From Planctomycetota bacterium (GTDB taxonomy: Bacteria; Planctomycetota; PLA2), in assembly GCA_021776785.1 (NCBI GenBank), contig JAJFFF010000001.1, positions 187,129-251,128 of the forward strand: 64,000 bases of DNA, read 5' to 3'. Shown one piece after another: positions 44,732 through 59,305 of this stretch. The position numbers and the translations under genes are program-made. Position 1 is the stretch's first letter. The number at the start of each line of letters is the position of its first letter. Under the pieces are notes generated by a model. The model saw only the letters and a list, made by a program, of their open reading frames with translations. It was not told the DNA's origin and did no database searches.

Positions 44732-45550
44732 CTAGTACGCGCGGTTGTCCGCAAGCGTGCGCGCGTAGCGCAACCCCGCCGACGTCTGAGACGGATACCA
44801 ACTCAGTCGCTCTCCATCGACCAGGAGCGCGCGGCGGCCTTCGCGGAGGGCGTATGCGTCCGGTGCGAGCGCCGCGGCCTCGGGAAACAGATCGAGATCG
44901 CGCGGGAACCTAAACGCGAACGGTTCGCTGGAGAAAAGGACCAGGTCGGCGTTTGTGTCCGCGACTTGTTTAGGCGTGAGGGTTGGATAGCGGCGCTGCT
45001 CCGGCGCGAGCGCGTTTTGCATGCCCGCGCATGTCAGGAGCTGGGAGATATACGTGTCGTGCGCCGCGGCCATCCACGGGTCTCTCCAGATGAGGTAGAG
45101 AAAACGCGGCGCGTTCGGTTGTCGCGCTGGTGCGCGCGCGAGTTGCTCACCGAGTTCGCCGGCCAGGCGCGCGGCCTCGGTCGCCGCACCGAGCGCCGTT
45201 CCAAGATCGCGCCAAAGAGCGGGCACCTCGTGCGGAGACTCGGGGTTGGTGAGGCAGACCGGAAAAGACCGCGCGAGATCCTCGATGTGTGCGCGCTGGT
45301 TTTCTTCCTTGTTGGCCAACACGAGGTCGGGTTGCAGCGCGCGAATCGCAGCGACGTCTGGGTTTTTTGTGCCGCGTACGGTCGGCACGGCGTCCACCGC
45401 GCCGGAAGGGCGGATGCAAAACTTGGTGCGCGCGACCAGCGCGGCACCCGCGCCCAGTTGAAAGACCGCTTCCGTTAAGGAGGGAACAAGGGAGACGACA
45501 CGTTGTGCGGTGCCGCGCTGCGGCGGCCCGAGCCAAGTCGTATCGGCCAT
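44732..45550 (-). CDS. TroA/BtuF-like periplasmic-binding-fold protein (cobalamin/Fe3+-siderophore family) with no detectable signal peptide
   Basis: VVSLVPSLTEAVFQLGAG...VG..KNPDVAAIRALQPDLVLA is typical of BtuF/FhuD-type PBPs. No signal peptide precedes either candidate start. Confidence 0.55.
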   Translation of the reverse strand: MADTTWLGPPQRGTAQRVVSLVPSLTEAVFQLGAGAALVARTKFCIRPSGAVDAVPTVRGTKNPDVAAIRALQPDLVLANKEENQRAHIEDLARSFPVCLTNPESPHEVPALWRDLGTALGAATEAARLAGELGEQLARAPARQPNAPRFLYLIWRDPWMAAAHDTYISQLLTCAGMQNALAPEQRRYPTLTPKQVADTNADLVLFSSEPFAFRFPRDLDLFPEAAALAPDAYALREGRRALLVDGERLSWYPSQTSAGLRYARTLADNRAY

Positions 45551-45607
45551 GCCGCGATGATAGCGGGGTTTGTAAATGGCCCAACAATCGCGGACCATGG
45601 GCACGGT

Positions 45608-46123
45608 ATGAGGTTGGTGTATTTGTTGCGTCACGGCATCGCGATCGATCGGACCCATCCCGATTGCCCGCGCGATTCAAAACGGGCACTGACGGCCAAG
45701 GGCCACCGCCGCACCGTCGATGCCGTGCGCGGACTTGCGACCATGGGCGTGACGGCGACCGCCATGGCGGCGAGCCAGTATGCGCGCGCCATGGAAACCG
45801 CGACGATAGCCCAGCGTGGTTTGGGGTTATCCGCGGAGATCCAAGCGTGGCCGGACCTTGAGCCGTCGGGCGCCGTCGCGGCCACGGCGCGTCGCCTGAT
45901 GGCGAGCACGGACGGACCGATTTTAGTGGTCGGGCATGCGCCGCATCTCGATCACGTGATCGCCACGCTCACCCAGGCGCGCGTCCGCCTCAAAAAAGCT
46001 GGCGCCGCGTGCGTTGACCTCGATGACCGCCGTCTGGTGTGGCTCATGGAGCCGCGCGCTTTGCGCAAGCTCGGCACGCGGTCGTCCAACCAGGAGAGCG
46101 AATCGAATGAGGCGCCCGTTTGA
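45608..46123 (+). CDS. sixA: phosphohistidine phosphatase SixA (histidine phosphatase superfamily)
   Basis: MRLVYLLRHGIAID carries the RHG catalytic motif. ~170 aa. The stop overlaps the ppx start. Confidence 0.7.
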   Translation: MRLVYLLRHGIAIDRTHPDCPRDSKRALTAKGHRRTVDAVRGLATMGVTATAMAASQYARAMETATIAQRGLGLSAEIQAWPDLEPSGAVAATARRLMASTDGPILVVGHAPHLDHVIATLTQARVRLKKAGAACVDLDDRRLVWLMEPRALRKLGTRSSNQESESNEAPV

Positions 46124-47613
46124 GCGAAAAACAAGTACCGCCCGCGCCGCTGGCGGCCGTCGATCTCGGCTCCAATAGCTTCCACCTGGTTGTTGCGCGC
46201 TTTGTGAAAGGCGAGACAGAGGTCGTGGACCGACTGCGAGAACAGGTGCAACTGGCGGCAGGATTGGACGAGAAGCATCACCTGCAGAAACGCGTCCGGA
46301 AGCGCGCGCTCGCCGCGCTTGAACGATTCCGTGAGCGCCTGCGCGGCGTGCCGCGTGCACGGTTGCGCGCGGTCGGCACGAACACGTTTCGAAAAGTTCG
46401 CGACGGCGGTCGCTTTCGTGTGGATGCTGAGGCGGCGCTCGGCTGCCCGATCGAAATTCTGAGTGGCCCGGAAGAGGCGCGATTGATTTTTCACGGCGTC
46501 GCGCACTCGATGCCGCCCGAGGACGGCGACATGCTTGTCGTCGACATCGGGGGGGGCAGCACCGAGTGCATTCTCGGCGCGGGCTTTGACGCGCGCCTCG
46601 TCCAGAGCGTGCAGCTGGGATGCGTGAGTCACACGCAGCGCTTTTTTGCGGACGGCGTCATGAAACGTTCGCGGTTTCGCGAAGCGATCATGGCGGCCCG
46701 TGTGTCGTTGCGCGACGTGGAGCGTCAATTCAGCGAACGCGAATGGACTCGTGTCGTGGGGGCGTCCGGCACGATCCGCGCAGCACTCCAGGTGGCGCGC
46801 GAGTGCGGGTGGGCCGATCGCACACTCGGGCGTGACAGTCTCAACGAACTCCAGGAGGCGTTGATCGACGCGCGCCATGTCGAAGACCTCGATCTTCCTG
46901 GGCTCAAGTCGGAGCGCGCGTCGGTCCTGGCAGGCGGCGTGGCCGTGTTGCGGGCGGTGTTCGATGCGCTCCACATCGAAGCGATGCAAGTCGCATCGGG
47001 TGCGCTGCGCGAAGGGATTCTGTACGACCTCGTCGGGCGGTTGGGCCATGACGATGTTCGCGATCGATCGATCGAGAAGCTGCAGCGCCGTTTCGATGTT
47101 GATCTAACGCAGGCGCAACGCGTCCGCACGACCGCATTGGAAATCCTGAGCGAGGTTGCGCGTCCGTGGAGGCTCGACAAGGAGTGGGCCACGTCCTATC
47201 TGTCTTGGGCGAGTTCACTCCACGAGATCGGACTCGCCATCTCGTATGTGAAACATCAAAAGCACGGGGCGTATCTGATCGGCGAGTCTGAGCTCTCCGG
47301 TTTTTCCCGCGACGACCGCCAAGTGCTGGCGGCGATGGTCGCGTGTCACCGCGGGCCGTCGCGCCACGAGCTGTTTTTAGAACTTCCCAAACGCGTGGCG
47401 CGCGCCACACGGCGCATGACGGCAATCTTGCGCTTGGCTGTCCGCATGCGGCGCGGGCGCGGCGGTGGCTTACCCGCTTTCTCGGTTGACGCCGGCCGCG
47501 ATCGTATTGGGTTGGATCTGGTGGACGGATTCGCAGCGCACCCGCTTCTACAACGCGACCTGCAAAAAGAGGTTGGTCGACTCCAACAGCTTGGCGTCGT
47601 GTTGGAGATCTGA
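46120..47613 (+). CDS. ppx: exopolyphosphatase / guanosine pentaphosphate phosphohydrolase (Ppx/GppA)
   Basis: AAVDLGSNSFHLVVARF...AVGTNTFR...VVDIGGGSTE is the ASKHA fold of the Ppx/GppA N-domain. A C-terminal HD-like domain follows. Confidence 0.85.
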   Translation: MSEKQVPPAPLAAVDLGSNSFHLVVARFVKGETEVVDRLREQVQLAAGLDEKHHLQKRVRKRALAALERFRERLRGVPRARLRAVGTNTFRKVRDGGRFRVDAEAALGCPIEILSGPEEARLIFHGVAHSMPPEDGDMLVVDIGGGSTECILGAGFDARLVQSVQLGCVSHTQRFFADGVMKRSRFREAIMAARVSLRDVERQFSEREWTRVVGASGTIRAALQVARECGWADRTLGRDSLNELQEALIDARHVEDLDLPGLKSERASVLAGGVAVLRAVFDALHIEAMQVASGALREGILYDLVGRLGHDDVRDRSIEKLQRRFDVDLTQAQRVRTTALEILSEVARPWRLDKEWATSYLSWASSLHEIGLAISYVKHQKHGAYLIGESELSGFSRDDRQVLAAMVACHRGPSRHELFLELPKRVARATRRMTAILRLAVRMRRGRGGGLPAFSVDAGRDRIGLDLVDGFAAHPLLQRDLQKEVGRLQQLGVVLEI

Positions 47614-47634: not shown

Positions 47635-48396
47635 CTACTCGCAATCCAAACCGGCGAAGATGTCTTCGACCGGCGTCGCGCGCGGCTCCCCGAAAAACTC
47701 AAAGCACTCCACGTGCGGGCGCGGCACGAGCATCGATGTTTCCGGACCTTCGGGAAAAAGCGTCACGATCGCGTCGTGAATGCGCAGGCACCGCTCCTTG
47801 GTATCGACCTCGGACGGTGTCAGCGTCAATACGCAGTGCATTTGGTCGCGGGGTGTTCCAAACATCAGGCGCGGCTTCGCTCGTTCCACGACGTCGGGTC
47901 CGTACGCGAGCATCGCGAATCGAATGTCGCGATCTAACAGCGCGTGCCGGATCGCCCAATGGGCCGCGATGTGGTCGGCATGCGCATTGATACCGCGCGG
48001 GTCGTGCCCGACCAACACCTGTGGGTTCAAGCTATCGATGACTTCCGTGATCGTGCGGGCGACGGCGCGCAGGTCGTGGCGCGCCAATCCGGAGTCCGGA
48101 AACGTGCCCGGCAAGAGTGCGTCAAGGCGGACTTCACGCTGTACGCGCTCGAGCCGTTCATAGCGCACGGCGGCGACTTCGTCCGGAGTGATTCCACGCT
48201 GCGGGCCCATCGACGACGCCTCGCCGCGCGTGAGACACAAAAACACAGTCGCTGTGTCCTCGTCTTTCCCGTAGCGCGCAAGGAGACCCGCGCATCCGTA
48301 CGATTCATCATCGGGGTGCGGGAGTACAACGAGGAGGCGGCGCTTGCGTTCTCGCAATCGCGTCAGGGCATCGGTCCACGGCATGGTGTGGACCAT
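47635..48396 (-). CDS. PIG-L/LmbE family N-acetylglucosaminyl deacetylase (MshB/BshB-like)
   Basis: LLVVLPHPDDESYGCAGLLAR (HPDDE zinc motif) with a downstream HxDH. Confidence 0.75.
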   Translation of the reverse strand: MVHTMPWTDALTRLRERKRRLLVVLPHPDDESYGCAGLLARYGKDEDTATVFLCLTRGEASSMGPQRGITPDEVAAVRYERLERVQREVRLDALLPGTFPDSGLARHDLRAVARTITEVIDSLNPQVLVGHDPRGINAHADHIAAHWAIRHALLDRDIRFAMLAYGPDVVERAKPRLMFGTPRDQMHCVLTLTPSEVDTKERCLRIHDAIVTLFPEGPETSMLVPRPHVECFEFFGEPRATPVEDIFAGLDCE

Positions 48397-48418: not shown

Positions 48419-49330
48419 CTAGCGCGAGACGAGTGTCTGCGCCCACCGTGCAAACTGACGGAGGTCGGAGAAATACTCGATGCCGCGCGGCCCGCGCCGC
48501 GTGCCGCGCGCTCCCACACCGCCGACGACCAACTCGCATGCCGCGGGCAAACTCTGACGGAGCAGAGCCAGCTGGCGATCGGTTTCGATGCCGGCGGACG
48601 AGAGTGAAACGCCGATGCCGACGGCCTTGGCGTCGCATTCCTGCGTGGCGGCGACGGTCTCCGCGATCGGTGTGCAGCGTCCGAGAATATGCGGACGTAC
48701 TCCAACCGTTGTGGCTGCGACCGCACACATCTGCACCCCGAGCCCGTGTTCCTCATCCGGAAGCGTTGCGAGAACGATCGTCGGAGACTTGAATGAGACT
48801 TCGAACTCGCTGCGCAACCGGCGCAAAAAGTCCTGCATCACTTCGGTCACGAAATGCTCGTGCCGAATCTTTAATGTTCCGTCGCGCCAGAGCGCCCCGA
48901 CGCGCGTGAGCAACGGTGCGACTCGCTGATCGAGAAGACGAACAGCTCCCATCGAACGATAGGCGTCTCGAAGCAGCCCGACCAGAGTGATCGCGTCATA
49001 CGTGCGGACCATCTGCACCATCGCCTGGATTTCAGGAGTACTGCTCGACGGTTCCGGATCGGGTTCGCGGGCGACGAGGGCGGCCAGCTCTTCGTCGGAA
49101 GAGCGCACAACTTTCCCCGGGCGGTTGCCGCGCTGCAGAGCCTCCGCAACGCGTCGCAACCACGCGAGGTGATCGTCGTTGTAGCGCCGATGGCCGGACG
49201 GGAGCCGGATCGGAACCGGCTTGCCGTAGCGCCGCTCCCAAACTCGAATCGTGTCCGAGGAGATCCCTGTCGCTTTGGCAAGTTGCCCAATCGACATCAA
49301 GTCAGCGGTGTTCACTTCTGTACTGTCCAT
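48419..49330 (-). CDS. MerR-family regulator with C-terminal cobalamin-binding domain (CarH/LitR-like light-responsive repressor)
   Basis: N-terminal MerR HTH (MSIGQLAKATGISSDTIRVWERRYG). C-terminal B12-binding domain with the DxHxxG motif (LPDEEHGLGVQM). The start is ambiguous: ATG 49330 or 49297. It is divergent from the ybgA-like/photolyase operon. Confidence 0.75.
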   Translation of the reverse strand: MDSTEVNTADLMSIGQLAKATGISSDTIRVWERRYGKPVPIRLPSGHRRYNDDHLAWLRRVAEALQRGNRPGKVVRSSDEELAALVAREPDPEPSSSTPEIQAMVQMVRTYDAITLVGLLRDAYRSMGAVRLLDQRVAPLLTRVGALWRDGTLKIRHEHFVTEVMQDFLRRLRSEFEVSFKSPTIVLATLPDEEHGLGVQMCAVAATTVGVRPHILGRCTPIAETVAATQECDAKAVGIGVSLSSAGIETDRQLALLRQSLPAACELVVGGVGARGTRRGPRGIEYFSDLRQFARWAQTLVSR

Positions 49331-49395
49331 TAATTTCCATGATTGTCCAATAAAAAACATAGACATAGGGCCTGGAGACCGGAACATGACTCGTC
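49300..49395. promoter_or_regulatory. AT-rich divergent promoter/operator region between the CarH-like gene and the YbgA-photolyase operon
   Basis: It contains tgtccattaatttccatgattgtccaataaaaaacatagacatag, which stands out against a ~68% GC background. TGTCCA occurs twice as a direct repeat. Confidence 0.4.
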
Positions 49396-50361
49396 ATGGG
49401 TCTGCAAGTCTCTGGACGACCGCGGTTGGGAATCAGCAGTTGTCTGCTCGGCGAAAAAGTTCGCTTCAACGGTGGTCACAAGCGGGACCGGTACCTCACC
49501 GACACTTTGGGCGCGTTGTGCGACTGGGTCATGGTGTGTCCGGAAGTCGAACTCGGCCTCGGTTCGCCGCGCGAGACGCTCCGTCTGGTCGGTGACCCCA
49601 CGCAGCCGCGGCTACATGAGCCGGCGACCGACATCGATCGGACGCGCGCGATGCATCGGTTTGCCGGTGACCGCGCGCGGGCGTTACGCGTCGAGGGCTT
49701 GCACGGGTTCGTGTTCAAAAAAGACTCCCCAACGTGCGGGATGGCGCGCGTGAAGGTTTGGCACGAGAGCGGCGGCGGATCGGAACGCAAAGGTGTCGGC
49801 CTGTTCGCCGCCGCAGTCATGAAAGCGTTTCCGCTCCTCCCTTGTGAAGAGGAGGGGCGGCTCCATGACATGCCGTTGCGCGAGAACTTTATCGAGCGCG
49901 TGTTTTGCTACCAGCGGTGGCGCGATTCGTTTGACAAGCGCGTGCGTCGCGGAAACTTGGTTGCGTTTCACACGGCGCACAAGCTGACGCTCATGGCGCA
50001 CTCGCCGGTGCGCTACCGAGAACTTGGTCGCATCGTCGCCGCGCTCGGAACGCGTCCGTTGCGTGAAGACATCGATGCGTACGGAGAACAGTTCATGGAA
50101 GCACTTCGACTGCTGGCGACGCGCCGCAAGCACACCAACGTCTTGCAGCACATCGCCGGATACTTCAAACGAAAGATCGACTCCGATGATCGTACCGAAC
50201 TCGCCGGTTGCATCGAGGACTACCACGCGGGAAGCGTGCCGTTGATCGTCCCGCTCACGTTGGTCCGTCATCACCTGCGCCGCCATCCCGACGCCTGGTT
50301 GGAGTGCCAGACTTATCTTCACCCGTACCCGGCGGAGCTCATGCTTCGTAACCACGTATGA
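49396..50361 (+). CDS. DUF523 (TudS-like) + DUF1722 (YbgA-like) fusion protein
   Basis: N-terminal LGISSCLLGEKVRFNGGHK is the DUF523 Cys-rich signature. The C-terminal half resembles YbgA, the gene found upstream of phr in E. coli. It overlaps the photolyase start. Confidence 0.7.
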   Translation: MGLQVSGRPRLGISSCLLGEKVRFNGGHKRDRYLTDTLGALCDWVMVCPEVELGLGSPRETLRLVGDPTQPRLHEPATDIDRTRAMHRFAGDRARALRVEGLHGFVFKKDSPTCGMARVKVWHESGGGSERKGVGLFAAAVMKAFPLLPCEEEGRLHDMPLRENFIERVFCYQRWRDSFDKRVRRGNLVAFHTAHKLTLMAHSPVRYRELGRIVAALGTRPLREDIDAYGEQFMEALRLLATRRKHTNVLQHIAGYFKRKIDSDDRTELAGCIEDYHAGSVPLIVPLTLVRHHLRRHPDAWLECQTYLHPYPAELMLRNHV

Positions 50362-51764
50362 GCCGTTCAACACCGCCTGCGCGCGTGCGCGTCGTACAGG
50401 ATGCGCCGCTCCGGCCGACCGGGGATTTCGTACTGTATTGGATGATCGCGACGCGCCGCACGACGTCGAACTTTGCGCTTGATCGTGCGGTGGAGCACGC
50501 CGCGGCGCTCAAGAAACCGATCGTCGTGCTCGAGCCGCTCCGCGCGGGGTACCGCTGGCGCAGCGACCGGATCGATACGACGCTCGTCGCCGGAATGTCC
50601 GACAACGCGCGTCGCTTCGCGGGCGAGCCCGTGGCGTATTACCCCTATGTCGAGCCCGAGGCCGGTGCGGGCCAGGGGCTGCTCGCAGCGCTGGCGGAGC
50701 GCGCCTGCGTTGTCATCACGGATGACTTCCCGTGCATATTTTTGCCGCGCATGGTGCGCGCGGCCGGCGAGCAGCTGTCGGTGCGGTTAGAAGCCGTCGA
50801 TTCCAACGGAATCGTGCCGATGCGATCGACGCCGGATGCGTTTCCCACGGCGTACTCGTTCCGGCGGTACTTGCATCGGAATCTCTCGCCGTACTTGGGC
50901 GAGGCGCCCTATGCTCGCCAACGTGTGGCCGGCGTGGCTCCGCGCATCGAGCTGCCGCCCGCGGTCGTGAAGCGGTGGCCCCTCGCGTCGCTGGAATCCG
51001 TGCCGCCGCGCGGCGCTACCGCGGCGCAGCAAACGCTCGTCGACTTTTTAGCGCGCTTGGATCGTTACGGCGATGATCGCAACTCGCCGGAAAACGACGC
51101 GACGAGCGGCCTCTCCTCGGCCCTTCACTTCGGCCACATCTCACCGCATGAGATCTTTCACGAACTCGCGGACCAAGAGGATTGGACGCCCGACGATCTG
51201 GCGGACACCGTCAAGGGCAACCGCGCGGGTTGGTGGGGGATGAGCGAATCCGCGGAGGGGTTCCTCGACCAGCTCATTACGTGGCGCGAGCTCGGCTACA
51301 ACATGTGCGTGCACCGACCGGACGACTACGACCGATACGAGTCACTCCCGTCTTGGGCGCAAGTAACACTTGAGGCGCATGCCGGAGACGAACGCGAGTT
51401 TGTGTACACGCTCGAGCAATTCGACACGGCGCAGACGCACGATCCGATCTGGAACGCGGCCCAAACGCAACTCCGCCGCGAGGGGCGCATTCACAACTAC
51501 CTGCGCATGCTCTGGGGCAAAAAGATCCTGGAGTGGACGGCGTCCCCGCGCGACGCGCTCGCCGTGATGATCGAGCTCAACAACAAGTACGCGCTCGACG
51601 GCCGCAACCCAAACTCGTACAGCGGGATCTTTTGGTGCCTGGGTCGGTACGACCGCGCCTGGGGTCCGGAGCGTCCGATCTTCGGCAAGATTCGCTACAT
51701 GAGCTCGGACAACACGCGGCGCAAGTACAAGCTCAAGAGCTACTTGGAAGCGTACAGCTCCTGA
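50358..51764 (+). CDS. phr: deoxyribodipyrimidine photolyase, class II CPD type
   Basis: FVLYWMIATRRTTSNFAL is the class II N-terminal signature. The C-terminal FAD-binding region has RMLWGKKILEW...GIFWCLGRYDRAWGPERPIFGKIRYMS. Confidence 0.85.
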   Translation: MSRSTPPARVRVVQDAPLRPTGDFVLYWMIATRRTTSNFALDRAVEHAAALKKPIVVLEPLRAGYRWRSDRIDTTLVAGMSDNARRFAGEPVAYYPYVEPEAGAGQGLLAALAERACVVITDDFPCIFLPRMVRAAGEQLSVRLEAVDSNGIVPMRSTPDAFPTAYSFRRYLHRNLSPYLGEAPYARQRVAGVAPRIELPPAVVKRWPLASLESVPPRGATAAQQTLVDFLARLDRYGDDRNSPENDATSGLSSALHFGHISPHEIFHELADQEDWTPDDLADTVKGNRAGWWGMSESAEGFLDQLITWRELGYNMCVHRPDDYDRYESLPSWAQVTLEAHAGDEREFVYTLEQFDTAQTHDPIWNAAQTQLRREGRIHNYLRMLWGKKILEWTASPRDALAVMIELNNKYALDGRNPNSYSGIFWCLGRYDRAWGPERPIFGKIRYMSSDNTRRKYKLKSYLEAYSS

Positions 51765-52210
51765 AAGTTGGGGAGGTCCGCGACCGTTTTGTAGTTGTAC
51801 GAGCGGACGACCTGGCCCTGTTCGAGCAGCACTGCGCCCGGCATCTGCCACGGATCCCCGACGGGTTTTCCGGCCCCGTAGCCGGCGAAGATCGCCTTGA
51901 GGCCGCGCCACCAAATCTTTGGATGCAGGATGAGTGAGATCGGGTTGCCGCGTTTCAGTTCGAATTCGCGGTAGATGTTTTTGTCAGGGTCGCTGAAACG
52001 TGCAACATCATCGAGCTTGTATTTCGCGAATAGCTCCCGCGCTTGCTCGTCGGTTCCGAGATGAACGAGGGCGAGACGCACACCGTGCGCCTCCATCGCG
52101 GGACGTTGCGCGGCGAGTGTCGCCAGCGTCTCGCGACAAAACGTTCAGCCGAGGTGGCGCAAGAAGACCGCCAAGACAGGGCCGTCTTCCGACATTTTTT
52201 GAAGTGTCAT
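51740..52210 (-). CDS. candidate selenoprotein: PRXL2/SelU-like (AhpC-TSA_2 family) thioredoxin-fold protein with G-U-T-F-C motif (in-frame TGA at 52147..52145)
   Basis: The track ORF 51740..52096 starts at an internal Met. The frame stays open upstream through one TGA to the ATG at 52210, which overlaps the cfa-like stop (ATGA). Translation gives [52 protein letters not shown]... The Sec sits where PRXL2-family proteins have the first Cys of CxxC (compare the human PRXL2A 'RRPGCFLCRE' segment). A 6-bp hairpin (UGUCGC...GCGACA) lies 6 nt after the UGA. Confidence 0.6.
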
Positions 52211-53241
52211 GCATTTCTCCGGAATCGATAGTGGGCAACGTGCCACTCCTGGCCGTCGCGGTAGCCGAACAGTTCCGCGCACGCCAAAAAAAACATGCGC
52301 CATCGCGCGAACCAGCGCGCCGCCGAATTCGCGCCGTAGCAGTCGGCGAAAACAGGCATTACGCGTTCGCGTTCGCGGTCAAGGTTGCGCAACCAGTGTT
52401 CCGACGTCTTTTGGTAGTGAATTCCGTTGACGAACCACCGATCCTCGAGCGCGAGGTCGCGATCGAAGCTCGGGAGCAGGTCGTAGTCCGGCATGAGACC
52501 GCCCGAAAAGAAGTGACGGCCCATCCAGTTGCTCGGGCCATCCGTCTCGAACGGATACGTGAACTGCTTGTGGCAAAACACGTGCACGAACAACCGGCCG
52601 TCCGGACGCAGCCACGACGCTACGCGTTGCATCAACGTTTGGTAGTTACGGACGTGTTCAAACATCTCGACGCTGACGACGCGGTCAAACACCTGTCCGG
52701 GTTCGAACGCGTTGACGTCGGCGGTCCGCACGTCGATCGACGTGACCCCGCGCGCTTCGATAAATCGGCGCTGTGGCGCGGAGTTGGAAACGGACACGAC
52801 GCGGCAGTTCGGAAAGTGCTCCGCGATGTAGAGGGAGAGCGATCCCCAGCCACAGCCGAGATCCAACACGTCCATCCCGTCCTCGATGCCCGCGCGTTCA
52901 CAAGTCAGGGCGAGCATCGCTTCCTCCGCTTCGTCCAGCGTGTGCACACCGTCCGGGTAGTAGCACGAGCTGTATTTCAGCCGCTTTCCCAGCGCGCACT
53001 GGAAAAACTGCGAGGGCACTTCGTAGTGCTGCTCGTTGGCCTTTTCGGGAACGAGCGCCACGGGGCTTGCTTTGAGGCCGCGCACGAACGCTGCGCGCTC
53101 GCCGGGGGTGCGTCCGAGCTCATCCGATAGACGTTCGCGGATCAGCCGGCGAATGCCCCAGCGCAACATCGGTGTCGGGACGAGGCTCCGCTCGGCGAGG
53201 GATAGACCGATGGCGCTCACGCGTCCTCCTTGGGAGGCCAT
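52207..53241 (-). CDS. cyclopropane-fatty-acyl-phospholipid synthase family SAM-dependent methyltransferase (second, divergent paralog)
   Basis: [24 protein letters not shown]...[17 protein letters not shown] is the Cfa/mycolic-acid synthase fold. The start is uncertain (ATG 53241 or 53169). The track ORF extends to 53424. Confidence 0.75.
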
Positions 53242-53987
53242 GGGAAAAACACGCTCGTTGTTTCCTGGTAGCGGCGGTAGTCTTCGCCGCGACTCTTGAG
53301 CGCTTGTTTTTCCGTGTACGGGATGCCGGTTAGGCGGAACAAGAACAGAAACATCAGAACCGGGCCGAGCCAAGTCAATAGGTGTCCGCCGCCGATACAC
53401 ACGTACGCGAACCAGTGGGTCCACTCAAAAAAGTAGTTGGGATGCCGTGAGTAGCGCCAGAGTCCCGCGCGACAGGTCTTGCCTGGATGTTGCCGGCGCC
53501 AGCGCGCGAGTTGCTGGTCTGCGACCATTTCCCCGGCTACCGCGATCACGGCGACGGCAGCGCCAACGTAGTCCCATCCGTCGAGCGGACCGGCGCGCCC
53601 CATGGCTGCATAGAACACGAGCGAAAACAGGACGGCGACAACGGCCTGCCCTTGGTAGAACACGAAGAAGTACAGCGGCGCGCGCTCGCCCCAGTGCTCG
53701 CGCATTGCGCGGTAGCGACCGTCTTCTTTAGCCTCGCCGCGGACGCGGTTCCAAAAGAGGTGCAAAAACAAGCGTCCGGCCCAGGCAGCGGCGATTACCG
53801 CTACGAGTGTGCGGCGCGCGAGCTCACCTTCACGAAGCGCGGCGTAGAGTACGGCCAACGCGCCGAGGGCGAACGCCCAAGCGGCATCCACGCTTGTGGC
53901 GTTCCTGGTTCGGAGTTGGCGCGCCCAAAGCGCGGCCATGCCCAAGCCAACGCCCAACAGCCCCCAGAGAGGCAGGAGCCAACTCAT
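53217..53987 (-). CDS. DUF1295 family membrane protein (steroid 5-alpha-reductase/ICMT-like fold)
   Basis: Multi-TM protein. [21 protein letters not shown] is the DUF1295 signature. The ATG at 53987 overlaps the cfa stop (ATGA). Confidence 0.7.
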
Positions 53988-55243
53988 CGCAGTCTTCCCG
54001 CGAGCGATGATTCGGGGCGCTCCCATACGAGGTGCTGGGTACCGATGAACCGCTCGTCGAATCCGCCCTCGCAATACGCGAGGTAAAACTCCCACATCCG
54101 CAGAAACAACTCGTTGTAGCCCAGTGCGCGGATCGCCTCGATGTGCGTATGAAAGTTCCGGCGCCACCGGCGCAACGTTTCGCCGTAGCTCGGCGTTAAG
54201 TCAAACACCTGCGTCGGAGCGAGGTCCGTGCGCTTCGCGGCCGCTTGCATCAGGACCGTGACAGATGGAATGCAGCTCCCAGGGAAGATGAATTTCTTGA
54301 TGAAATCCACGTCGTTTTTGCACTCGTCAAAGTAGCGGTCGCGGACCGTGATGGATTGCAAGAGCATCGCGCCGTCCCGTCGGAGAAGTTGCTCGCAGGT
54401 TTCGAAAAACGTCGCGTAGTAGCGGTGGCCAACCGCTTCAATCATTTCGATCGACACGATTTTGTCGTACGTCCCCGAGAGATCTCGGTAGTCGCGCAGC
54501 AAGACCGTGACGCGATCCGAGAGACCCGCGGCTTCCACGCGCGCTTTCGCGAGGTGGAGCTGCTGTTCAGAAATCGTCGTTGTCGTCACGCGGCAACCAT
54601 GGCGTTGCGCCGCGTGGATCGCGAAGCCACCCCAGCCGGTTCCGATCTCCAGCACATGGTCGTCTTTGCCGATCTGCAGCGCGTCGCCGACGCGGTCGTT
54701 CTTGTTGCGCTGCGCCTCCGCGAGCGATTCACGCGCGTCTTCGAACAACGCGCACGAGTACGTCATCGATTCGTCCAGAACGAGCCGGAAGAAGTCGTTG
54801 CCGATGTCGTAATGCGCAGCGATGTTGCGTTTGGCGCCGCGTCGCGTGTTGCGTCGCAGCGTGTGCGCCGCGCGCAAGAGCGGTTGGACCAAGCGCGCAG
54901 CGCCTCTCTCCATTCCGTTCATTACGTCACGGTTCGCGACAAACGCTCGGACGAGCGCGGTGAGGTTGTCGACGTCCCAGAGCTTCTCGAAGTACGCCTC
55001 GGCCGCCGCGTTGTGTCCCCCGCGCACGACGCGACCGTAAAACGCCGCGTCGTGGACGGTCACAGCCGCCGTGCGTTCCGCCGGAGCGTCGGCCGAGCCG
55101 AACGTCGTGGTACCGTCCGGATCGGTCCACACGATGTGGCAATCACGAAGCGCGTCCAAGCGCCGGAGGAACGCTCGTCGCGCCCAGCTTCCCAGCAAGC
55201 GGACGTGCTGTATCTCGTGTTCGCGTAAGACGGCGGATTTCAT
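53984..55243 (-). CDS. cfa: cyclopropane-fatty-acyl-phospholipid synthase (Cfa-type lipid methyltransferase)
   Basis: AHYDIGNDFFRLVLDESMTYSCALFE, VLEIGTGWGGFAIHAAQRHGCRVTTTTIS and YDKIVSIEMIEAVG are present. The start is at ATG 55243; the track ORF carries a 199-aa spurious extension. Confidence 0.85.
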   Translation of the reverse strand: MKSAVLREHEIQHVRLLGSWARRAFLRRLDALRDCHIVWTDPDGTTTFGSADAPAERTAAVTVHDAAFYGRVVRGGHNAAAEAYFEKLWDVDNLTALVRAFVANRDVMNGMERGAARLVQPLLRAAHTLRRNTRRGAKRNIAAHYDIGNDFFRLVLDESMTYSCALFEDARESLAEAQRNKNDRVGDALQIGKDDHVLEIGTGWGGFAIHAAQRHGCRVTTTTISEQQLHLAKARVEAAGLSDRVTVLLRDYRDLSGTYDKIVSIEMIEAVGHRYYATFFETCEQLLRRDGAMLLQSITVRDRYFDECKNDVDFIKKFIFPGSCIPSVTVLMQAAAKRTDLAPTQVFDLTPSYGETLRRWRRNFHTHIEAIRALGYNELFLRMWEFYLAYCEGGFDERFIGTQHLVWERPESSLAGRLR

Positions 55244-55968
55244 CGAACGGTCCTCGGATGCGGGATGAAAGGAACGCGCTTCAGGCGTAACCGAAGCGCT
55301 TGCCAGTAAATCGCTGCGGTGATACGCAGCGTCAGGAAAGGCCACCGAACAAGCGCCCGCGCGAGCGAGCCGCCCGTGATCGGGCGCCGCTTTAGACTCA
55401 GCGTGGCTTCGAAGTGCGTCGCGTCGTCGCGCACGTTTTCCATATGCACGGCGAGGCTCTCGTCCGGCGTCGAGAACGCCCAGTCGCACCGGTAGTTCAT
55501 GTCGAGGAACGGAGAGACGTGAAACTCCTTGCGGAAGCGGCCGCGCAATCCGTCCAAGACATACGTGTGGCGTTCGTTCCACGGCGTGTTCGTGATCTCG
55601 GCGCACAGCGCCACGACGCGCTTTCCCGCGTCGTCGAAACAGTAGTAGAACGTTACGGGGTTGAAGCAGTAACCGAACAACCGCAGATTCGTCAGCATGC
55701 GGATCGGTCCCGTCGGTCGGACGCCGAGCTTTTTTTCCACGACATCGCGCACGCACTCCGAAAGCGGCTGCTTCGGATGGCCCAGGTAGTCTTTGCGCCG
55801 AAACCACGCGAGGTTGAAACGGCGGGCCGACCAGAGCCAACGGCGGTCAAACACCTGCGGTAGCTCGTCGAGATCGAGATAGAGTTGGTAGAGGCAATAG
55901 CGAAAGGCGTGCGGTTTCGGGATGTGTCGCTCGTGGTCCACGGTGCCTTCGTAGATCGCGCTATGCAT
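55240..55968 (-). CDS. DUF1365 family protein
   Basis: SAIYEGTVDHERHIPKPHAFRYCLYQLYLDLDE... fits DUF1365. This family is typically found with Cfa and FAD amine-oxidase genes. Confidence 0.7.
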   Translation of the reverse strand: MHSAIYEGTVDHERHIPKPHAFRYCLYQLYLDLDELPQVFDRRWLWSARRFNLAWFRRKDYLGHPKQPLSECVRDVVEKKLGVRPTGPIRMLTNLRLFGYCFNPVTFYYCFDDAGKRVVALCAEITNTPWNERHTYVLDGLRGRFRKEFHVSPFLDMNYRCDWAFSTPDESLAVHMENVRDDATHFEATLSLKRRPITGGSLARALVRWPFLTLRITAAIYWQALRLRLKRVPFIPHPRTVR

Positions 55969-57202
55969 GCACCGGCTCCAACGCGCGTACGACGCGCAGA
56001 GCGCTATTCACGCCATCTTCGTGGAAACCGTTGAACCAATACGCCCCGCAGTAGTGCGTGTTGCGAGAACCGCTGATCTCGGACCAGCGCTGCTGGGCGG
56101 CGATGCTTTCCGTGGTGAACAACGGATGATCGTACGTAAAGCGTCGCAGCACCTTGTCGGGTGCGATCGCGCCGGTTCGGTTGAGTGTGACGAGGAACGG
56201 CGCGTGCGACGGCAGCGACTGCAAGATGTTGAGGTTGTAGGTGACTGTGGCGCGAGACGTGTCCGGCTGCACGTGATAGTTCCACGCGGCCCACGCTCGC
56301 CTTACGCGCGGCATCAGCGTTTGATCCGTGTGCAGCACGACGTCGTTGGATTGATAGGGCAGCGCTCTGAGGATGTCTCGCTCGTCCGGCGACGGGTCGC
56401 GGAGCAGCCGCAACGCCGCGTCGCTGTGTGTGGCGAATACGACGTGGTCGAATCGTTGCGACCCCGCGGCCGTCCGTACGTCGACGCCGCTCGCGGTGCG
56501 TGCGACGGCGACGACGGGCGTGGACAGACGAATTCGATCCGTGAACGGGCGCGTGATGGCGTCCACGTAGCGGCGGGACCCACCGCGGACGACGCGCCAC
56601 TGCGGGCGTTCGTCTACCGAGAGCATGCCGTGATTCTGAAAAAAGCTCACGAAGAACCGCAATGGAATTTGCAGAAAGCGCTCCGGATCGGTGGACCACA
56701 CCGCAGAACCCATCGGCACCAGGTAGTGCTCGACGAAACGGCGTCCGTAGCTGCGCTCCTTGAGAAATTCGCCGAGGGTCGCGGGCGCTGACGCGTCCCC
56801 GATCGTCGCCGGCGCTTCGCGGTGAAATCGCAAGATGTCACGGATCATCTTGAGGAACGACGGCCGCATCAGGTTGCGCCGCTGCGCGAACATCGTGTTG
56901 AGCGACGTGCCGTTGTATTCGAGACCGGTCTGTTCGCAGCGCACCGAGAAACTCATCGCGGACGGTTGGGAGGCGACGTCCAACTCGTCTAGAAGCGCGA
57001 TGAAGTTCGGATACGTCCAGTCGTTAAACACGATGAAGCCGGTATCGACGTCGTAGGATCTTCCGTCCTGCGCAACCGTAACGGTGGCCGTGTGACCGCC
57101 GACGTAGTCGTTGGCTTCAAACAGAGTGATGTCGTGGGCCTTGTGCAGGTGGTGCGCGGCGACGAGGCCCGAGATGCCGGTCCCGATGATCGCAATGCTC
57201 AC
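55961..57202 (-). CDS. FAD-dependent oxidoreductase (flavin amine-oxidase/phytoene-desaturase-like)
   Basis: GTG 57202 gives VSIAIIGTGISGLVAAHHL, a Rossmann dinucleotide motif. It overlaps the desaturase stop (GTGA). Confidence 0.8.
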   Translation of the reverse strand: MSIAIIGTGISGLVAAHHLHKAHDITLFEANDYVGGHTATVTVAQDGRSYDVDTGFIVFNDWTYPNFIALLDELDVASQPSAMSFSVRCEQTGLEYNGTSLNTMFAQRRNLMRPSFLKMIRDILRFHREAPATIGDASAPATLGEFLKERSYGRRFVEHYLVPMGSAVWSTDPERFLQIPLRFFVSFFQNHGMLSVDERPQWRVVRGGSRRYVDAITRPFTDRIRLSTPVVAVARTASGVDVRTAAGSQRFDHVVFATHSDAALRLLRDPSPDERDILRALPYQSNDVVLHTDQTLMPRVRRAWAAWNYHVQPDTSRATVTYNLNILQSLPSHAPFLVTLNRTGAIAPDKVLRRFTYDHPLFTTESIAAQQRWSEISGSRNTHYCGAYWFNGFHEDGVNSALRVVRALEPVHA

Positions 57203-58134
57203 CGGCTCGCCTCGCGGACGCGCGGAGGAACGTCGTTGAGGTCGCGAATGATCCCCAGCCACGACAACACGACGAGCCCGTAGTAAGTGATGTCGATCTC
57301 CCACCACCAAAAGCCCTGGCGTACAGAGCCGGGGTAGTGATGGTGGTTGTTGTGCCAACCTTCGCCGAGTGTCAGGACGGCGAGCCAAAAGCTGTTTCTG
57401 CTGTCGTCGTCTGTGTCGTAGCGACGTCGGCCGACGGTGTGGGCGAGCGAGTTGATGGCACTTGTCGCGTGAAACAGAGCGACCGTCGAGATCCCAAACC
57501 CCCAGACCACGAACTGCATGCCGCCCGTCGCGTAGAGAGCGACGACGAGCAATCCCGGCGCAACCGTGTCAAAACGGTCGAGCCAGCGAAGCTCCGGGTA
57601 GCGAGCGAGATCAGGCACCCGGCTCAGATCGGTACGGAAGTTCTTGCGCGACGTGAACCAGCCGACGTGGCTCCAATAAAACCCGTGTTCATGGGGAGAA
57701 TGGACGTCTGCGGCCTCGTCGGAGTGGCGGTGGTGGTGCCGATGATGGGCCGCCCACCAAAGTGGACCCCGCTGCGCGGACATGTTGCCCACGACGGCGA
57801 AACAGAACTGGGCTACGCGCCCGGTCCGAAATGTCCGATGGGAGAAATAGCGGTGATAAAAGCCGGTGATGGCAAACATGCGGACGACGTACAGTCCGAT
57901 GGCGACCCAGAGCGCCGGCCAACTCCAGCCCACCCATAGGACGCCGAAGCAGAGGACATGGAGGAGGACGAACGGGATGCACCGAAGCCAATCGTCCACT
58001 CTGCCCTCGTCGTGCTCGGCCGGTCCCGCCTGGGAGTCGAACCAACGGGCGACCGCGAGCCCGGTTCGTCGCAACGCACTTCGCCTTGCCGTGGGCGCTG
58101 GCAAGCGAGTTCTAGGACGAGTGGAGAGAGGCAT
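57199..58134 (-). CDS. membrane acyl-lipid/acyl-CoA fatty acid desaturase (delta-9-type, di-iron His-box family)
   Basis: Three His boxes are present: HRYFSH, HHRHHHRH, HNNHHH. Multi-TM. The annotated start overlaps the divergent TlpA-like start and may lie further downstream. Confidence 0.85.
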   Translation of the reverse strand: MPLSTRPRTRLPAPTARRSALRRTGLAVARWFDSQAGPAEHDEGRVDDWLRCIPFVLLHVLCFGVLWVGWSWPALWVAIGLYVVRMFAITGFYHRYFSHRTFRTGRVAQFCFAVVGNMSAQRGPLWWAAHHRHHHRHSDEAADVHSPHEHGFYWSHVGWFTSRKNFRTDLSRVPDLARYPELRWLDRFDTVAPGLLVVALYATGGMQFVVWGFGISTVALFHATSAINSLAHTVGRRRYDTDDDSRNSFWLAVLTLGEGWHNNHHHYPGSVRQGFWWWEIDITYYGLVVLSWLGIIRDLNDVPPRVREASR

Positions 58135-59305
58135 GTTCGAGCGAATCTATCGAAATGATGCTGTCGCGTCCCGGCCGCGCCGTACCCTGTGGCGCGTGAA
58201 AACCTGGATTTTGCCGACGATGGCCCTTGCAATCGTCGCAGGGTGTCGTTCGTCGTCAAATGCGCAGCAACGGTTTGAGACTAGTTACGCCGCATACCAA
58301 GCGGATGGATTCAGCGATCGGGAGATGGCCCGTCTTTCGAAACAGGCTGTGGCGGTCGCCGAGAGTGATGGAATCTCTGATGAGGCGCGTTTCGATACGC
58401 TGTTGCGGGCCGCACGAGCCACGTCTGAGGGCGGCTCGTACAAGCGTTCGCGTAGGGCTCGAGGCCGGATTTTCCCCGCGCTCCTCCGGCTTAGCCGCCA
58501 TGACGATCACCGTCTTGCCCAGGTGATTCAGGCTCTGTCCCACCTCGGGAGATTCGATCCGAGCGAGGCGAAAAAAGAAGAACAAGAATATGTCCAATAC
58601 TTGGACAAAGTCGCCGCCGTGGGACCCGTCGAGTGGGTGCAGCCCGCTGTGGCCTGGGCTCGGGCGCATCACCGCGTCGCGCGCGATCTGCATGTCGAGC
58701 CGATCAGCGAAGCCGAGCGTGCGGAGACGCGCGAGTGGATTAAGTTGAGCTACCGCGGTTGCGAACACCTGCCGGACTCGCAGTGGGCGTCCGACGTCCG
58801 CCAGTTCTGCAGCCGTTCGATGAGCCAACTCGACCAGTTGGTCATCGGGCGGCCCGCGCCCGAGATTGCGTCGCGCGATTTCTCGGGGCGTGACCTGCGG
58901 CTATCCGAATACCGCGGCAAGATTGTCGTCGTTTCGTTTTGGGCGACCTGGTGCAAGCCGTGCATGGCCAAGTTCGACGATCAACGCGACCTCGTCAACG
59001 CGATGCAAGGCAAGCCGTTCGCGCTGCTGGGTGTCAACAACGATCGGGATGCAGCGCGTGCGCGGGCTGTGGCAGGCAACGGCAAATTGAACTGGCGCAA
59101 CTTCCGCGACGACCCGGAAGCCGGGGCGGGCGAGTGCGCCGACGCCTTCGCCGTGCGCATGTGGCCGTCCGTTTTCGTCCTCGACGCCGAGGGCGTGGTG
59201 CGCGCGATCAACCCGCGCCGCGACGACCTGTGGGACATCTGCAAATCGCTGGTGGCTGAAGTTGAAGATTCCCACCCGATCGCGGCGGCCGCCGGCAGCG
59301 ACTAG
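58133..59305 (+). CDS. TlpA-like thiol:disulfide oxidoreductase lipoprotein (thioredoxin fold, WCKPC)
   Basis: Lipobox LAIVAGC. Trx motif VVSFWATWCKPCMAKF. The start is uncertain: ATG 58133 gives a long pre-lipobox leader. The track ORF starts at 57866, inside the desaturase gene. Confidence 0.75.
   Translation: MFERIYRNDAVASRPRRTLWRVKTWILPTMALAIVAGCRSSSNAQQRFETSYAAYQADGFSDREMARLSKQAVAVAESDGISDEARFDTLLRAARATSEGGSYKRSRRARGRIFPALLRLSRHDDHRLAQVIQALSHLGRFDPSEAKKEEQEYVQYLDKVAAVGPVEWVQPAVAWARAHHRVARDLHVEPISEAERAETREWIKLSYRGCEHLPDSQWASDVRQFCSRSMSQLDQLVIGRPAPEIASRDFSGRDLRLSEYRGKIVVVSFWATWCKPCMAKFDDQRDLVNAMQGKPFALLGVNNDRDAARARAVAGNGKLNWRNFRDDPEAGAGECADAFAVRMWPSVFVLDAEGVVRAINPRRDDLWDICKSLVAEVEDSHPIAAAAGSD

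Follow-up and report, generated by a model that had tools for sequence, protein, structure and literature searches.

Within the window, that is, the whole 64-kb stretch of DNA that was analysed, a carH/litR-like regulator gene lies divergent from rudS, a YbgA-like gene of the long form, which is followed by the gene of a class II CPD photolyase (Table 1). The start codons of the regulator and rudS genes are 65 bp apart, and rudS overlaps the photolyase gene at an ATGA. An earlier reading of this sequence, hereafter the preliminary description, had placed a DUF523/DUF1722 (YbgA-like) gene and a class II photolyase gene divergently from the regulator, and both are found where it put them. It had also called the divergent region strikingly AT-rich, in agreement with our finding that positions 49316..49366 form the lowest-GC 51-mer of the window (29.4% versus 63.1% for the whole 64 kb). 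The start of the regulator is uncertain, GTG 49315 and ATG 49297 being alternatives to the annotated ATG 49330. From ATG 49330 to the operator described below there are only 13 nt. A PIG-L/LmbE-family deacetylase gene lies downstream of the regulator gene, and the loci most closely related to this one (L083, L084 and L085) all share the arrangement. The PIG-L gene is probably co-transcribed with carH and would therefore be autoregulated together with it.

Table 1. Features of the carH–rudS–phr locus and of a BtuF-like reading frame in the window
Feature	Position	Strand	Basis or remark
BtuF-like ORF	44732..45550, or ..45598 by gene call		TroA_like, 147 bits
PIG-L/LmbE-family deacetylase gene	47635..48396	-	PF02585, 3e-23; 22 nt downstream of carH
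carH/litR-like regulator gene	48419..49330	-	303 aa; start same as public gene call
Half-site-like repeats TGTCCA and TTTCCA	49324..49329 and 49334..49339	+	Read from the sequence
Palindromic operator, 22 bp, TGTCCAATAAAAAACATAGACA	49344..49365	.	PWM, uniqueness, orthologous site in L083
Putative rudS–phr promoter	49360..49387	+	-35 TAGACA (right operator arm), 16-bp spacer, weak -10 GAACAT
rudS (YbgA-like long form, TudS + DUF1722)	49396..50361	+	PF04463, 1e-35; PF08349, 3e-42
Class II CPD photolyase gene	50358..51764	+	TIGR00591, PDB matches; ATGA overlap with rudS

The regulator and its divergent neighbours

The regulator is built of a MerR winged-helix, a four-helix bundle and a Rossmann B12 domain, with Pfam matches to MerR_1 (5e-14), B12-binding_2 (7.5e-9) and B12-binding (PF02310; 25.5 bits, under the Pfam cut-off of 32.1). 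Its recognition motif RxWERRY is present as IRVWERRYG, in which W31, E32, R33 and R34 are invariant among 47 homologs. The cap motif Wx9EH reads W148-RDGTLKIRH-E158-H159; W, E and H vary in none of the 47 homologs and align with W131, E141 and H142 of Thermus CarH. An intact Wx9EH cap is what separates CarH from the B12-independent CarA (PMC9304148). For the B12 domain we tested the Rossmann motif D/ExHxxG-x41-SxT/V-x22–27-GG, and found E193-E-H195-G-L-G198, S242-L-S and G270-G271, all invariant in the 47 homologs, with a first gap of 43 residues compared to 41 in the reference motif. The DEEHGLG string, which had been reported as a DxHxxG motif, is real but was read in the wrong register, as the motif is ExHxxG (E193, H195 and G198), as in CarH. 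Three elements of the light-response signature (GxxW, EH, GxxH and GxxxP; PMC11796333) are present and invariant, namely GxxW (G145..W148), EH and GxxxP (G217..P221). The GxxH position reads DxxH (D192-E-E-H195), with G found there in 22 of the 47 relatives, and the residue following the cap Trp is Arg.

The AF2 model of the regulator has a pLDDT of 92.1 and a pTM of 0.81. Using this model in Foldseek, we found that the top 13 matches are full-length Thermus CarH chains, 5c8d and 5c8e being the best PDB matches, and in sequence the regulator can be aligned from end to end with T. thermophilus CarH 5c8d (E 2e-22). The CarH/LitR architecture suggested previously is thus upheld by the Pfam modules, the invariant cap and His loop, and the best match to Thermus CarH. 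The C-terminal domain, for which alignment with B12 domains had been named as the decisive point, does align with them, both in sequence and in fold (TM 0.85 and rmsd 2.5 Å on the B12 domain of CarH). Because it scores 105.6 bits against the NCBIfam CarH equivalog NF052513, whose cut-off is 400, the regulator is a distant relative rather than an equivalog of the curated CarH set.

The rudS product matches PF04463 (TudS) over residues 12–153 and PF08349 (DUF1722) over residues 196–312, and the Cys residues of its SSCLLG, CPEV and SPTCG align with those of TudS 6z92 (motifs SxC, CPE and SPxCG). From its sequence, it is predicted to be a tRNA 4-thiouridine desulfidase in which a TudS [4Fe-4S] desulfidase domain is joined to DUF1722. 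Such TudS–DUF1722 fusions function as the tRNA s4U desulfidase RudS, whose genes have been reported in light-responsive operons alongside photolyase (PMC11417400). The photolyase itself scores 334.7 bits against the class II model TIGR00591, under its cut-off of 550, compared to 37 bits against E. coli-type class I models, and its best PDB matches over residues 7–467 are class II enzymes, i.e. M. mazei 2xry (3e-66), 8oet and rice 3umv. The preliminary description saw in this arrangement the conserved E. coli ybgA–phr pair. In E. coli a DUF1722 gene likewise overlaps a photolyase gene by 4 bp; however, no MerR/B12 regulator gene adjoins it in the annotated stretch. Since E. coli YbgA is DUF1722 only, without a TudS domain, and phr encodes a class I photolyase, the linkage is functionally analogous rather than conserved synteny.

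The intergenic operator

The operator has the structure TGTCCA-ATAAAAAACA-TAGACA, an inverted repeat TGTC-N14-GACA whose arms are each a CarH-type TnnACA half-site, facing outward and resembling a -35 hexamer. It is the sole exact TGTC-N14-GACA in the 64 kb. With a PWM derived from other genomes it scores 29.1 bits, compared to 6.6 for the second-best site in the 64 kb and a maximum of 19.6 over 20 shuffles; one-mismatch cores are rarer in the window than expected by chance (6 versus 23). In L083, a 70%-identical relative, the orthologous palindrome TGTCCAGCTAATTTCCTGGACA occupies the same position. Of 80 homolog loci from Planctomycetota, Eisenbacteria and Holophagaceae, 46 have an operator-type site upstream of carH, the background rate being 0.005 per 230 bp, and 18 have the exact core, where about 0.2 would be expected. 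Cultured relatives with homologs include Engelhardtia mirabilis Pla133 (loci L013, L055 and L087) and Rohdeia mirabilis Pla163 (L068).

On the carH side, TGTCCA at 49324 and TTTCCA at 49334 precede, with a 10-bp period, the TGTCCA at 49344 that forms the left palindrome arm. A TGTCCA direct-repeat operator had been proposed before, together with a search for the 11-bp direct repeats typical of CarH/LitR. The repeats exist, but the conserved operator is the 22-bp palindrome, which includes one TGTCCA copy only, and the search upstream of 80 homologs revealed no 11-bp periodicity of TnnACA/TGTnnA, the inverted TnnACA pair being conserved instead. We also considered that the operator might be the tandem repeats TGTCCA/TTTCCA/TGTCCA at 49324..49349, bound by a CarH tetramer as in Thermus, with the downstream TAGACA incidental. 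Characterised CarH tetramers do bind three or four tandem TnnACA repeats, and three half-site-like hexamers, two of them exact, do lie on the same strand here; however, their period is 10 bp instead of 11, the middle one, TGGAAA when taken on the reading strand, has no ACA core, and the first overlaps the annotated ATG of the regulator. The two extra repeats are, moreover, missing in L083, which retains the palindrome only, and no flanking position is conserved over the 46 aligned operators. The TGTCCA hexamer as such shows no enrichment over the 64 kb, with 23 occurrences compared to 20 expected. Taken together, a direct-repeat operator appears unlikely. Beside the palindrome, the extra repeats at 49324..49339 may have arisen by chance or may have an auxiliary role, in which case they could serve further DNA-binding domains of a tetramer.

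Elsewhere, class II photolyase, rudS or furan-fatty-acid genes occur within 6 kb in 27 of the 80 homolog loci, and in L006 and L080 genes of these kinds have extra operators upstream; in relatives, such operators, or carH itself, adjoin the furan-fatty-acid operon. The preliminary description suggested that the regulon may extend into the adjacent lipid operon, which is the furan-fatty-acid operon of the window. Our operator scan of the 64 kb found no operator preceding it. A one-mismatch core at 57463 was rejected as lying inside the desaturase gene, and a 3.2-bit PWM match at the desaturase start (58134) as being within noise; the lipid operon is therefore not assigned to the regulator. As a separate observation, this operon appears to end in a SelL-like selenoprotein gene that was shortened by both the ORF listing and the gene caller, and the hairpin after its in-frame TGA has a folding energy no better than shuffled (z = -0.65).

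The BtuF-like ORF had been put forward as a possible cytoplasmic corrinoid-handling partner. Its product has no hydrophobic N-terminus, but a link to B12 is not supported: it scores 42.7 bits against the BtuF equivalog NF002894 (cut-off 234), matching TroA_like only, the heme-binding HmuT scores as high as BtuF, and in none of the 80 other loci does a BtuF-like gene accompany carH. Scanning the full 64 kb with Rfam gave no cobalamin riboswitch and no other RNA, and no tRNAs were found either; without such a riboswitch, one way in which this gene might have been tied to B12 falls away.

A predicted light switch and its relation to known systems

No promoter passed a sigma-70 scan of the intergenic region of the window, the proposed rudS–phr site being sub-threshold, so the promoter proposal is drawn from relatives. 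In L083 the equivalent position reads TGGACA-N17-CAGAAT, and the operators of L063, L067 and L083 are each overlapped by promoter-like matches. A TAnnnT hexamer lies 15–17 bp past the carH-proximal arm in 19 of 46 homolog loci and at almost no other offset. The position of this -10-like hexamer suggests that the operator arm is itself the -35. The rudS–phr transcript is predicted to be leaderless, or nearly so, at ATG 49396.

We consider it likely that the locus is a CarH/LitR class I B12 light switch, in which a repressor on the palindrome would shut the two divergent promoters in the dark and come off in the light. Our analysis shows the domain architecture, the conserved motifs, the fold, the gene order, and an operator that is unique in the window and conserved across genomes; that the regulator binds AdoCbl, responds to light, represses and oligomerises, and where the promoters lie, is inferred. 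In the dark, the regulator would carry adenosylcobalamin, with His195 as the lower axial ligand and W148, E158 and H159 forming a cap over the adenosyl group, and would oligomerise and bind the palindrome. The outward-facing TnGACA arms would at the same time be the -35 boxes of the two divergent promoters, so that one bound oligomer would block RNA polymerase towards both carH(–PIG-L) and rudS–phr. UV, blue or green light would break the Co–C bond, upon which the oligomer would fall apart and both operons would be transcribed. RudS would then strip UVA-reactive 4-thiouridine from tRNA, and the class II photolyase would repair cyclobutane pyrimidine dimers, a reaction that requires light. The core of the preliminary description, a divergent CarH/LitR AdoCbl photoreceptor-repressor that predicts light-induced photoreactivation, is supported by every computational test. 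Several observations speak against the light-switch reading: PF02310 and the CarH equivalog model score under their cut-offs, GxxH reads DxxH, Arg follows the cap Trp, the operator is an inverted repeat rather than a set of tandem 11-bp direct repeats, the intergenic region gave no sigma-70 promoter, and the annotated ATG leaves only 13 nt to the operator.

A light-independent regulator is improbable, whether it would need an antirepressor as CarA does, act for a separate LOV photoreceptor in the manner of class II LitR, or sense the availability of B12 instead of light. B12-independent CarA and LOV-dependent class II LitR do belong to the same family, and the present regulator has neither the GxxH element nor a His following the cap Trp; however, CarA is without the cap Trp and class II LitR without the Rossmann B12 domain, while here neither the Wx9EH cap nor the His loop varies among the homologs. 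The window ORFs that we examined include no LOV, BLUF or CarS-like gene, and the genes under control, i.e. the photolyase and the desulfidase that acts on a UVA chromophore of tRNA, are needed specifically in light. Least probable of all is a classical MerR-type activator remodelling the promoter from a palindrome between -35 and -10, as the MerR-family DNA-binding domain, the dyad-symmetric site and the prevalence of activators on palindromes among MerR proteins would suggest, since the -10-like hexamer of the relatives, 15–17 bp past the arm, leaves the palindrome outside a 19–20 bp -35/-10 spacer and the CarH/LitR members described in the literature surveyed are repressors.

Compared with characterised systems, the regulator has its best sequence and structure match in Thermus thermophilus CarH (LitR, TT_P0056). 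The two share the three-module architecture, the RxWERRY helix, the Wx9EH cap and the E-x-H-x-x-G...S-x-L...GG loop; Thermus carH is also divergent from a photolyase-containing operon, crtB–phr, and its half-site is TnnACA, one copy of which overlaps the -35 (PMC9304148). The proteins are, however, only about 25% identical, and Arg stands here in place of the His that follows the cap Trp in Thermus CarH and forms its bis-His adduct in the light state. The Thermus operator comprises three tandem direct repeats at 11 bp instead of two outward half-sites spaced 16 bp centre to centre, and its target operon begins with a carotenoid gene rather than with rudS and a class II photolyase gene; we saw no carotenoid gene in the window ORFs that were examined.

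The class II LitR proteins of Pseudomonas (PplR1/PmlR2) are likewise MerR-type repressors, with a regulon that contains photolyase and the furan-fatty-acid methylase UfaM, and also RudS (PMC11417400). Their operator is made of two hexamers, T(G/A)TACA-N12-TGTA(C/T)A, overlapping the -35 (PMC9758184), with a spacer of N12 compared to N10 here. In contrast to the complete B12 module of our regulator, they have no Rossmann B12 domain and receive their signal from a short LOV protein. For CarH/CarA of Myxococcus and Cystobacter, operator design has been described as plastic; recognition of the CarA/CarH operator involves inverted repeats, and in Cystobacter the working form of CarH is a dimer. These operators differ in being about 55 bp long, with five 11-bp repeats, and in controlling carotenogenesis; the antirepressor CarS takes part there, and none is evident at this locus. 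The two CarH proteins with characterised operators use tandem 11-bp direct repeats, unlike the inverted repeat here.

Systems of this kind are already known, given the divergent arrangement of Thermus carH and crtB–phr and the reports of RudS in light operons, and the palindromic operator is the one unusual feature here. In our literature search we found no palindromic class I LitR operator, no CarH in Planctomycetes, and no tested CarH from Planctomycetota, Eisenbacteria or Holophagaceae. We tentatively suggest that a large clade of AdoCbl CarH photoreceptors in these three groups may recognise a dyad 22-bp site, TTGTCyAG-N8-CTrGACAA, rather than direct repeats, that one bound unit may shut two divergent -35 boxes, and that the regulon may join tRNA 4-thiouridine removal, class II photorepair and, often, furan-fatty-acid synthesis. 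If true, recognition of a dyad site would mean that the DNA-binding domains are arranged differently in the dark-state oligomer. A compact palindromic operator whose arms serve as two divergent -35 boxes would also suit CarH-based optogenetic switches as an alternative part. The supposed working of the family is left unchanged, and we regard this as a clean annotation result more than a discovery. In summary, this locus brings Planctomycetota and two neighbouring groups, for the most part uncultured, within the B12-photoreceptor paradigm, and offers a concrete, testable link of light sensing to tRNA 4-thiouridine removal, a connection made only as speculation in the RudS paper (PMC11417400).

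Domain composition and fold of the regulator

The window is part of a metagenome-assembled genome (MAG) from the Planctomycetota. Its MerR/B12 regulator, CarH, matches a protein encoded on a public contig at 100% identity and has Planctomycetota MAG proteins as its closest named relatives. The reading frames of the regulator, the TudS+DUF1722 gene and the photolyase were all found as listed in the preliminary description. A search of solved structures gave Thermus thermophilus CarH (5c8d, E 2e-22) as the top match over the full length. W148/E158/H159 align with its adenosyl cap (W131/E141/H142) and E193-x-H195-x-x-G198 with its His177 loop; the B12 motif noted earlier is thus present, in the register E-x-H-x-x-G, with the noted D one residue further upstream. 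Across 47 aligned homologs, both sets of residues are unchanged, and so are the RxWERRY recognition helix, S242-L243, G270-G271, G145 and G217..P221. The AlphaFold2 model from this alignment has a mean pLDDT of 92, its 13 best PDB matches are full-length CarH chains, and the isolated CarH B12 domain fits onto it with a TM of 0.85 at 2.5 Å.

An intact Wx9EH with the classic B12 motif separates AdoCbl-dependent CarH from B12-independent CarA (PMC9304148), and presence of the Rossmann module separates it from class II LitR (PMC9758184); by these sequence features, the regulator falls with AdoCbl CarH. Its PF02310 score lies below the Pfam threshold, and the NCBIfam CarH equivalog model, which has a cut-off of 400, gives 106 bits. 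GxxH is one element of a published light-response signature (PMC11796333), and the regulator has DxxH at this position. The cap Trp is followed by Arg, where Thermus has the His responsible for its bis-His adduct in the light state. His is absent from this position (residue 149) in all 47 clade members, of which 36 have Ala, so the adduct of Thermus CarH cannot form in the clade. AdoCbl binding, the light response and the oligomeric state of the regulator are properties that we infer.

Features of the carH locus and their coordinates in the window
Feature	Coordinates	Strand	Description
SixA-like histidine phosphatase and Ppx/GppA genes	45503..47613	+	
PIG-L/LmbE-family deacetylase	47635..48396	-	22 nt downstream of carH; best NCBIfam match BshB2, well below cut-off
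carH	48419..49330	-	Regulator, 303 aa; MerR_1, B12-binding_2 and B12-binding matches
Operator palindrome	49344..49365		TGTCCAATAAAAAACATAGACA; 29.1 bits by weight matrix
rudS (YbgA-like)	49396..50361	+	TudS (PF04463) + DUF1722 fusion, long form
phr	50358..51764	+	Class II photolyase; ATG overlaps preceding stop as ATGA
AhpC-TSA_2/SelL-related redox gene	51740..52210	-	In-frame TGA 52145..52147
Lipid operon	52207..58134	-	Desaturase, amine-oxidase-like, DUF1365, CFA synthase, DUF1295, CFA-like methyltransferase
Fatty-acid desaturase	57199..58134	-	First gene of lipid operon
Operator-like site	58591..58607		TGTCCAATACTTGGACA; operator arms with 5-bp spacer

The operator and the putative divergent promoters

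The start codons of carH and rudS lie 65 bp apart, and the AT-richness ascribed to this region is borne out, as the lowest-GC 51-mer of the 64 kb (49316..49366, 29% vs 63%) falls there. There are TGTCCA copies at 49324 and 49344 and a TTTCCA between them; the TGTCCA direct repeats had been proposed as a plausible operator. The canonical CarH operator consists of tandem 11-bp repeats, nnnnTnnACAn, of which Thermus carH has three at 11-bp spacing. We fetched 80 loci of regulator relatives from Planctomycetota, Eisenbacteria and Holophagaceae, and the tandem pattern was not seen upstream of carH in these loci. The most strongly enriched words there (TGGACA, CTGGAC, CTAGACA) combine into a 22-bp inverted repeat, TTGTCyAG-N8-CTrGACAA. 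In 18 of the 80 loci its exact core, TGTC-N14-GACA, is found in the 200 bp upstream, compared to 0.0024 per 200 bp elsewhere. A weight matrix built solely on the other genomes picks out the window palindrome; the runner-up in the 64 kb scores 6.6 bits and the maximum in 20 block-shuffled windows is 19.6. Sites of at least 18 bits, 30–260 bp upstream of the HTH, are present in 46/80 loci, a partly circular count since some of these sites also served to train the matrix.

The closest relative, at 70% identity, shares the rudS/carH/PIG-L order and has a perfect TGTCCAGCTAATTTCCTGGACA as far from each of the two genes as in the window; the extra TGGAAA/TGGACA repeats are missing from it. Conservation across the 46 aligned sites is confined to the palindrome. 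Thus, the real operator has one TGTCCA copy as its left arm, while the other copy, which overlaps the annotated carH ATG, is lineage-specific or due to chance. The operator-like site at 58591..58607 lies in one of the lower-GC stretches of the window, within an AhpC/TSA-type thioredoxin-fold coding region, and is plausibly a chance occurrence.

The two arms are outward-facing TnnACA half-sites of the CarH type, and both (TAGACA, TGGACA) resemble the −35 consensus. Of 46 homolog loci, 19 have a TAnnnT hexamer 15–17 bp past the carH-proximal arm, with almost none at other offsets, and a promoter scanner put −35 boxes in the arms in three loci (L063, L067, L083). The window elements, TAGACA-N16-GAACAT towards rudS and TGGACA-N16-GACAGT towards carH, are weak and below the scanner threshold. 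In known CarH systems, a half-site is reported to overlap the −35 box; repression here would use the same overlap, applied symmetrically to two divergent promoters. Use of the weak elements would leave the rudS transcript with almost no leader and would make GTG 49315 or ATG 49297 a likelier carH start than ATG 49330, for which reason we mark the carH start codon as uncertain.

Predicted target genes and extent of the regulon

The rudS product keeps all three TudS Fe–S cysteines. Published work characterised the TudS–DUF1722 fusion as the desulfidase RudS, which takes 4-thiouridine off tRNA, and its authors note that RudS genes are often members of light-responsive operons that also contain photolyase and MerR/LitR regulators (PMC11417400). 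Of the suggested conservation of the E. coli ybgA-phr pair, the 4-bp overlap is shared, yet YbgA is DUF1722 alone, without TudS, and the E. coli photolyase is class I; we take the likeness for a functional linkage that recurs, and not for conserved synteny.

As the PIG-L gene follows carH so closely and keeps this place in the three closest loci, it is probably part of an autoregulated carH transcript; the deacetylase may be a light-regulated step of low-molecular-weight thiol metabolism. Between this pair and a BtuF-like gene lie the SixA-like and Ppx/GppA genes. The GppA substrate, (p)ppGpp, is an alarmone that the RudS paper ties to UVA-crosslinked tRNA (PMC11417400), which may be a coincidence. 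The BtuF-like protein, put forward earlier as a possible corrinoid partner, is a TroA-like binding protein without signal peptide that scores far below the BtuF model and is as near to heme-binding as to B12-binding proteins. No cobalamin riboswitch for its gene was found in the window, nor such a gene beside carH in the other 80 loci, and we leave it out of the system.

The lipid operon corresponds to the furan-fatty-acid operon of R. sphaeroides (RSP1091–1087, including UfaD and UfaO, the DUF1365 protein), which guards against singlet oxygen (PMC7380195); the desaturase is an added first gene, and we read the whole as a module of singlet-oxygen defence. The operon directly follows carH in three homolog loci (L072, L074, L076), separate operators precede lipid-operon genes or photolyase in two (L006, L080), and photolyase, rudS or lipid genes lie within 6 kb of carH in 27 of 80. 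In the window, the operon and phr converge, its first gene and the thioredoxin-fold gene have back-to-back starts, and the matrix scan found no operator above noise before it. The proposed reach of the regulon into this operon is unsupported at this locus; for the clade, comparison of the loci makes such control plausible. The annotated start codons of the desaturase and of the AhpC/TSA lipoprotein-like gene (+) overlap in the sequence CATG (58132..58135). This leaves no intergenic promoter space, so at least one start is probably wrong; the latter gene may start at MALAIVAGC, about 58221.

The SelL-related gene is listed and gene-called as a fragment of 113–118 aa. Readthrough puts the TGA in a G-U-x-F-C redox motif, and an in-frame TGA occurs at the matching position in two other loci (L020, L028), so its product is a probable selenoprotein. 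A hairpin after the TGA in the SelL-related gene is no better than in shuffled sequence. Its ATG and the stop codon of the CFA-like gene overlap as ATGA, which would make the SelL-related gene the last gene of the furan-fatty-acid operon.

Relation to known light-responsive systems

One homolog locus (L088, 7001..12202) carries two carH paralogs in tandem, the second starting 134 nt past the end of the first, followed by SRPBCC/polyketide-cyclase, amine oxidase and photolyase genes; the pair recalls the carA-carH tandem of myxobacteria.

Thermus carH is likewise divergent from a photolyase operon, crtB-phr, and class II LitR regulons of Pseudomonas include photolyase and a furan-fatty-acid enzyme, with RudS added by the RudS paper (PMC11417400). 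The inverted operator geometry is the one departure, with a 10-bp spacer compared to tandem direct repeats in Thermus and Bacillus CarH and N12 in Pseudomonas class II LitR; since CarH operators are reported to be plastic (PMC9304148), we rate it a modest variant. Given the similar Thermus and Pseudomonas regulons, the kind of system is known, and the window locus is a new, distant member of it.
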